Below, piece by piece: positions 17,062 to 17,613 of a DNA stretch of 64,000 bases. Origin of the DNA: a virus (taxonomy: Duplodnaviria > Heunggongvirae > Uroviricota > Caudoviricetes); the IMG/VR virus record IMGVR_UViG_2718218305_000006. One strand, written 5' to 3'. The number at the start of each line of letters is the position of its first letter. Within the stretch, counting starts at the first letter, position 1. The translations under genes and the position numbers were made by a program. The notes below the pieces were generated by a model. It had not been told where the DNA came from and ran no database searches. It saw nothing but the letters and a program-made list of their open reading frames with translations.

Positions 17062-17613
17062 TTAACTTTTCATCGCTTCGTTATGGGGCATGGTTGGGGC
17101 AAACTCGCTTAACTGTGTATTTAACAGCGTTACCTGCGCATTATTATTTTCTGACATCCATTTCCCGTACACCTGAAACACCATTTGCGCATCTGCATGG
17201 CCCATCTGGTTTGCAATGAATGCCGGGTTAGCTCCTGCTGTTAACGACCAGCAGGCATAAGTGTGTCTCGACTGATACGATTTGCGATGGCGGATTCCGG
17301 CACGCTTTACCGCTGCGTCCCACATCTGCCTTATTGAGTCAACGGTAAAATGGTCGCCATAATTTTTTACTTTCGCTGACACTTCAGGTTGAAAAACAAA
17401 GGTACATTTTTGTTTCTCTGTTCTGCCGAATTCTCTGAGGTGAACATCGATGATATGCTCTTTGCTCAGTCTCGTTAGTGCCATCTGACTCCGGAGAGCG
17501 TCGATTGCGGGCTTAATAAGGTGAATCACACGATTGGTTCCCGCCTGTGTTTTTGGTACTGTAAAACGGTCTTTTGCCAGATTTCTTCTGATTATCATTC
17601 TGCCATTGCGCAA
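17062..17613 (-). pseudogene. int: Tyrosine integrase, C-terminal fragment only (5'-truncated)
   Basis: 183 aa containing only the distal catalytic motifs (..RHRKSYQSRHTYA.. and ..GHADAQMVFQVYGKW.. with catalytic Tyr); no N-terminal arm/core-binding region or first catalytic Arg; 3' end abuts att. Confidence 0.65.

Follow-up and report, generated by a model that had tools for sequence, protein, structure and literature searches.

Only a 3′ fragment of the integrase gene remains in a ydfJ-site prophage matching Sakai Sp11, which is probably excision-defective

The prophages of E. coli O157:H7 strain Sakai were surveyed by Asadulghani et al. 2009, who reported that Int "has been disrupted in Sp3, Sp11, and Sp12" (PMC2669165). 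In that study, Sp11 was scored as having a disrupted int and no xis, with replication, morphogenesis, packaging and lysis functions conserved, and its failure to excise was predicted (PMC2669165). PCR for attP on all 18 Sakai prophages revealed circular forms for nine of them, Sp11 and Sp12 not being among these, and in Table 2 of the same work, with attP PCR and qPCR as methods, Sp11 scores negative on circularisation, on replication and on packaging (PMC2669165).

Intact versions of the integrase region are found in relatives. A neighbouring prophage in strain Z885 carries a complete module encoding an Int of 431 aa, an Xis of 83 aa and an exonuclease of 798 aa. The intact Int comprises an Arm-DNA-bind_2 domain (aa 9-71), a SAM-like domain (aa 85-126, a weak match below the Pfam gathering cutoff) and a catalytic domain (aa 206-397), and the 83-aa Xis (Pfam DUF1233 excisionase) is encoded between exo and int in the intact relatives. 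The intact 'RecE-family' exonuclease (L005 14088-16484) combines an Exonuc_VIII N-terminal region with a C-terminal Rv2179c-like 3′-5′ exonuclease domain (PF16473, aa 617-788). In phages Tritos and PhiR42_1 the gene order is dicF-dicB-ydfD-exoVIII (823 aa)-xis (83 aa)-int (426-431 aa)-attP.

The DNA analysed here, called the window, is a stretch of 64,000 nucleotides (IMG/VR record IMGVR_UViG_2718218305_000006) in which two prophages, A and B, lie next to each other. Window 16741-59455 and 59462-64000 were collinear with Sakai 2204371-2157035, the two blocks measuring 42.7 kb at 99.35% identity and 4.5 kb at 99.5% identity. This near-identical, collinear region includes an exo′/′int pseudogene pair of equal sizes and positions in both sequences. 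Prophage B is integrated in ydfJ, with the truncated host gene at its tail-fibre/dinI end:

62717..64000, plus strand: host gene ydfJ, for an MFS transporter, of which 427 codons remain downstream of the insertion (NCBIfam TIGR00883)

The gene has the same length in K-12, where it adjoins Qin, and in Sakai it corresponds to ECs_2152, which is followed by a feature named 'prophage Sp11'. On the basis of these alignments, window 16741-64000 is identified as Sakai prophage Sp11 plus ydfJ.

The open reading frame under study lies at the left end of prophage B, in the following context:

17062..17613, minus strand: the flagged ORF, 183 codons with a TTG start, the first 5 codons being junction- or exonuclease-derived
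17062..17599, minus strand: 3′ remnant of a tyrosine integrase gene, codons 254-431 plus stop, equal to Sakai pseudogene ECs_2217
17599..17600, no strand: deletion junction, where the flank alignments to the intact module meet
17595..18839, minus strand: 5′ remnant of a RecE/ExoVIII-like exonuclease gene (codons 1-413 followed by a tail in another frame), equal to Sakai pseudogene ECs_2216
18932-19120, minus strand: DUF1482, ydfD-like gene, upstream in the same leftward operon (annotation transferred from Z885)
19117-19305, minus strand: dicB (annotation transferred from Z885)
19480-19531, minus strand: DicF sRNA (Rfam, 75 bits)

The earlier note had described this ORF as a 3′ integrase fragment of about 183 codons with the distal catalytic motifs only, and our results bear this out. 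The remnant corresponds to codons 254-431 of a 431-aa lambda-type tyrosine integrase: Pfam Phage_integrase matches the ORF at profile positions 52-165 of 172 only, and residues 254-431 of the intact Int from the Z885 relative were found in the window with 178/178 identities by tblastn. The first five codons (L-R-N-G-R) belong to the exonuclease side of the junction, the int-derived part being 17062-17599. With regard to the catalytic residues, the remnant keeps Arg-II (QSRHT, R at 364), GH (386-387) and the Tyr nucleophile (QVY, 397), and the catalytic Lys was placed in VPKTQ by position only. Alignment to lambda Int, in the manner of the check proposed with the first description, showed that Arg-I of the intact integrase is R235 in TGIRPGEL, opposite lambda R212. 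This residue lies 19 residues before the breakpoint and has been deleted, leaving the catalytic set (Arg-I, Lys, His/Tyr-x-x-Arg-II, His/Trp, Tyr) incomplete.

The remnant starts at aa 254 and thus contains no arm-type DNA-binding domain; the core-binding (SAM-like) domain is likewise absent from both the fragment and the window. Int residues 1-252 had no match anywhere in the 64-kb window by tblastn, and the int reading frame upstream of the junction is interrupted by several stop codons. The cognate 83-aa Xis was also without a tblastn match anywhere in the 64-kb window, and no partner excisionase stands beside int in prophage B. Pfam, tblastn and the alignment to lambda Int therefore agree with the earlier claims that an arm-binding domain, a core-binding domain and the first Arg are all missing upstream, and the search with the cognate Xis does so with the claim that no xis-like ORF is present. 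Altogether, the ORF is almost certainly what is left of a dead integrase gene, that of the lambdoid prophage Sp11 at the ydfJ site (Qin site), and nothing was found that contradicts this reading.

It could be argued instead that the 183 codons encode a functional short protein, for instance a dominant-negative or regulatory recombinase fragment kept by selection, as its frame has no interruption, does not vary between O157 genomes and, standing at the end of the dicB operon, may be transcribed. The structure of the dicB operon is known from K-12. However, this lack of variation is what the recent common descent of O157:H7 would lead one to expect, and the TTG start lies in junction-derived sequence with no recognisable ribosome-binding site (no obvious Shine-Dalgarno sequence was seen ahead of the start of 17062..17613). 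In addition, the fragment is devoid of Arg-I and of all DNA-targeting domains, and in K-12, where IS2 affected the prophage at this site, it is another part of int that is gone, which fits random decay and not selection. We consider a functional short protein highly improbable, and the ORF is treated below as a dead remnant.

Comparison with the intact int-xis-exonuclease module of Z885 revealed a single deletion of 2,258 bp (Z885 locus L005 12987-15244). The missing segment comprises int codons 1-253, the int-xis spacer, the whole of xis and exonuclease codons 414-798. On both sides the window follows the intact Z885 copy closely, with 99.4% identity over window 16630-17607 and 99.6% over window 17599-19388, and base-by-base inspection of the breakpoint showed about 1 nt of exact microhomology. 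A deletion mediated by an IS, in the style of K-12, was rejected, as no IS sequence is present at the junction. Other candidate references for the junction were discarded. Tritos, PhiR42_1 and K-12 Qin align on the int/att side only (88-91%), from 17607, and they give the int-side breakpoint only, the DNA of their exonuclease alleles being too divergent to reach the other side; vB_EcoS-640R1 aligns on the exonuclease side only, at 84-92%, and has a different int.

At the junction, codon 413 of the RecE/ExoVIII-like gene is fused out of frame to int codon 254. The resulting 414-aa ORF matches NCBIfam PRK09709 (exodeoxyribonuclease VIII) at positions 1-409 of 877, as well as Pfam Exonuc_VIII, and is 99.3% identical to aa 1-413 of the intact 798-aa protein. 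Exonuclease residues 414-798 had no tblastn match in the 64-kb window, and the C-terminal nuclease domain (aa 617-788 of the intact protein) has been lost from this stump. The 414-aa ORF is thus the other stump of the same deletion and no candidate for the integrase N-terminus, a relationship that the earlier note had missed. This one 2,258-bp deletion in the int-xis-exonuclease module joined the exonuclease and int stumps, and the arm-binding and core-binding domains, Arg-I (R235), xis and the nuclease domain of the exonuclease were lost with it.

The distribution of the junction was determined with a 201-bp probe across 17599/17600, run against 5,426 complete E. coli genomes. The probe was fully covered in 224 of the 5,426 genomes, in 221 of them at 99% identity or more, and the remaining genomes with a match had one half of it only. 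Among the fully covered records listed, every one was O157 or O157-like. The presence of the junction in 224 complete genomes therefore means that no sequencing or assembly error is involved. Were the truncation an artefact and the real gene full length, the same error would have to recur base for base in 224 independently assembled complete genomes and drop 2,258 bp each time, with them the complete xis gene and half of the exonuclease gene; moreover, the pseudogene is annotated both in Sakai and in RefSeq PGAP records. The chance of an artefact is negligible, and a full-length int frame recovered by sequence correction, for which the earlier note had allowed, is excluded by the same junction in 224 genomes. 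The truncation is a fixed lineage marker. The defect had also been annotated already, as ECs_2217 in Sakai and as a PGAP pseudogene elsewhere, which had escaped the first description: in the RefSeq annotation of Z885, a near-identical O157:H7 chromosome, the int remnant is a tyrosine recombinase pseudogene 'missing N-terminus' and the 414-aa ORF a RecE-family exonuclease pseudogene 'missing C-terminus'.

Regarding the consequences for excision, the remnant would be unable to bind arm or core sites or to assemble a complete active site, and no Xis would be available; prophage B therefore could not excise by itself. It would be inherited vertically, fixed in the O157:H7 lineage together with pchB and three nleG genes. 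The claim that the prophage is probably excision-defective is in line with the published data, since B is 99.4% identical to Sakai Sp11 and no circular Sp11 was detected (PMC2669165). The accompanying statement that the other modules look intact also agrees with the conserved scores given to replication, morphogenesis, packaging and lysis of Sp11 (PMC2669165). Both the inference of defective excision and the PCR proposed to check it had thus already been made for Sakai. The experimental test of 'locked in place' comes from Sakai, where the neighbour Sp12 also has a dead int.

The attachment sites of prophage B were then located as follows:

17010..17024, no strand: att core TGAATTATGGATTTC at the prophage A/B junction, where the K-12 Qin left- and right-end alignments overlap at 17010-17027
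16539..17027, no strand: P-arm side of att plus core, first copy of a direct repeat of about 490 bp (direct alignment)
16642-16884, minus strand: dinI-like gene within the first repeat copy
62239..62728, no strand: attR of prophage B, second repeat copy, with the core at 62711-62725

The 15-bp core is identical at both ends of prophage B and matches the empty-site attB, and its copy at 62711-62725 supplies the ATG of the truncated ydfJ. The extent of the repeat, about 490 bp, was taken from direct alignment, automated repeat finding having given only 300 + 94 nt; a core placed at 16929 was rejected, as direct alignment puts the core at the end of the repeat. The layout of the A/B junction is complete and attP-like (P arm - core - P′ arm - int), and phage Tritos has a collinear int-attP region, at about 88% identity. 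When attB was rebuilt from the two ends of K-12 Qin, which occupies the same att site, the resulting sequence was contiguous in 2,011 genomes, which confirms the prophage boundaries. Judged from their sequence, both att sites of prophage B appear intact, the left one being attP-like and the other a normal attR, a feature not recognised in the first description. With these sites preserved, a cognate Int and Xis from another source would be all that excision requires.

The identity of prophage A bears on where these proteins might come from. Its assignment to Sakai Sp12 was rejected: Sp12 matches it at only 87-93%, and its best Sakai matches are Sp11 tail genes (96.6%). Along its head and tail-shaft genes (window 1-7000), prophage A shows 99-100% identity to a third prophage at the ydfJ site, known from O157 strains of UK cattle. 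In Z885 this third prophage stands between Sp12 and Sp11, the same arrangement as that of the window, and in strain 9000 between ydfJ and Sp11; both copies have an intact int-xis-exonuclease module, with an Int 178/178 identical to the B remnant and an 83-aa Xis. Intact Int and Xis of this kind are exemplified by WP_001206148.1 and WP_000005551.1. Its placement on either side of Sp11 shows that the att/dinI/int-3′ region is recombinationally active. The third prophage of the UK strains also carries, beside the intact int-xis-exo, an NgoMIV-type restriction-modification pair and nleC. Prophage A of the window (1-16343) is without the nleC segment of about 1.4 kb, and its tail tip is mosaic (90-96% identity).

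In Sakai, the neighbour of Sp11 is Sp12, which has xis and an int reduced to a 695-nt frameshifted 5′ fragment abutting ynfA. The int of Sp12 being dead, there is therefore no helper in Sakai. At the left end of Sp12 (L010 16332-17026), attL and ynfP-rspB-rspA, present in K-12, are deleted.

The earlier note had made the reasonable caveat that prophage A might supply Int in trans. These observations raise the question of whether prophage A supplies Int and Xis in trans and thereby excises B as a circle from its intact att sites (17010-17024; 62711-62725). The att sites of B share core and P arm, prophage A resembles the UK-strain prophage with its intact 431-aa Int and its Xis, and that prophage occurs on either side of Sp11 in different strains. 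A probe for the undeleted int matched 2,866 genomes, of which 2,671 were fully covered and 195 matched in one half only; an estimated ~29 of the 224 junction-bearing genomes would then also hold an undeleted int of the same type, a value obtained as 224 − 195, with no direct count, on the assumption that every half-match genome bears the junction. On the other hand, the int end of prophage A lies outside the window, the intact int-xis being that of its relatives. The either-side arrangements could equally have arisen if the intact prophage A moved on its own, or if homologous recombination took place within the shared dinI-att-int3′ segment of about 1 kb. Sakai yielded no circular Sp11, though it offers no helper (PMC2669165). 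Rescue of B by prophage A is accordingly a doubtful possibility. The broader proposal, that Sp11 in the source strain is conditionally mobile, being excised in trans by its neighbour with its cargo transferable, seems improbable, even though att, late and replication genes look intact. If it were true, the placement of the intact prophage on either side of Sp11 could reflect such excision events.

The rest of prophage B includes virulence-related and regulatory genes, listed here with several RNA genes:

37897-38211: PerC-family regulator (pchB in Sakai), named by transfer from the Sakai annotation
60040-62181: three NleG-type T3SS effector genes (nleG2-3, nleG6-2, nleG5-2 in Sakai), named only by Sakai transfer
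26741-26915, plus strand: sok antitoxin RNA of a hok/sok module (Rfam)
32231-32403, plus strand: STnc100 sRNA (Rfam)
31209-31281 and 31385-31458, plus strand: two tRNA genes (Rfam)

NCBIfam gave no match for the three ORFs at 60040-62181. A CI-like repressor ORF at 21175-21813 on the minus strand is open over 212 codons, with Peptidase_S24 and a weak HTH_3 match below the gathering cutoff; Sakai and Z885 match it at 100% identity, and their annotations give only a 112-codon CDS there. The repressor of Sp11 has been called disrupted (PMC2669165).

Taken as a whole, the feature is an already annotated pseudogene of a well-studied, experimentally characterised defective prophage, and the finding is correct but ordinary. 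It offers a clean textbook case of prophage fixation, in which a small deletion takes the 5′ part of int, xis and a recombination nuclease, and spares the att sites and the virulence cargo. What is new here is the exact breakpoint and deletion size, the survival of both att sites and the invariance of the junction in O157 genomes, as well as the affiliation of the window neighbour to a type of prophage whose members elsewhere encode a matching Int and Xis in intact form. A modest remaining value lies in the possible remobilisation of Sp11 by an intact sister prophage in some O157 lineages.

Among known systems, the third prophage of Z885 and 9000 and the phages Tritos, PhiR42_1, HannyBb and mEp460 have the same integrase family as prophage B and the same order dicB-ydfD-exo-xis-int-attP, the phage integrases being 93-94% identical to the B remnant across the retained 183 aa. 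Their intact modules hold a full Int of 426-431 aa, an 83-aa Xis and an exonuclease of 798-823 aa, whereas the window is without the 2,258 bp. Lambda Int has the same arm-binding/core-binding/catalytic layout as the intact parent of the remnant, and its R212, R311, H333 and Y342 motifs align; on the contrary, identity to lambda Int is only about 24%, Arm-DNA-bind_2 is a different arm-binding family, and the remnant represents only the distal part of the catalytic domain.

Sakai Sp11 shares with prophage B the ydfJ locus, orientation, gene order and deletion junction, its stumps being ECs_2216 and ECs_2217. Unlike the window, Sakai has an IS629/IS1203 insertion beside the dinI-like gene at the Sp11/Sp12 boundary. 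Past this boundary (window 16741 vs Sakai 2204371), ISEc8 and IS256 fragments are also present in Sakai and none in the window. The collagen-repeat region of the tail fibre differs slightly between prophage B and Sp11, with the break at 59455/59462. Collagen-like Gly-X-Y repeats occur in the tail-fibre genes of both window prophages (15300-15700; 59455-59462), the B copy differing in length from that of Sakai; the Sakai copy is annotated as split with a pseudogene (ECs_2158/2159), and in the window it is an open 385-codon ORF.

The cryptic prophage Qin of K-12 resembles prophage B in its ydfJ site, its att core and its dicF-dicB-ydfD-recE′-int′ layout, and in both prophages the int-xis-exonuclease region has been destroyed. 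The 3′ part of int is about 91% identical at the DNA level between K-12 Qin and the window. Unlike prophage B, Qin has an IS2E remnant between the ydfE and intQ pseudogenes (L002 22079-24709); intQ keeps about 1.2 kb, having lost only some 50 codons from its N-terminal end, and the part of the exonuclease gene that survives as ydfE is smaller than the one in the window. From this comparison, the losses in Qin and Sp11 are independent decay events at the same module.
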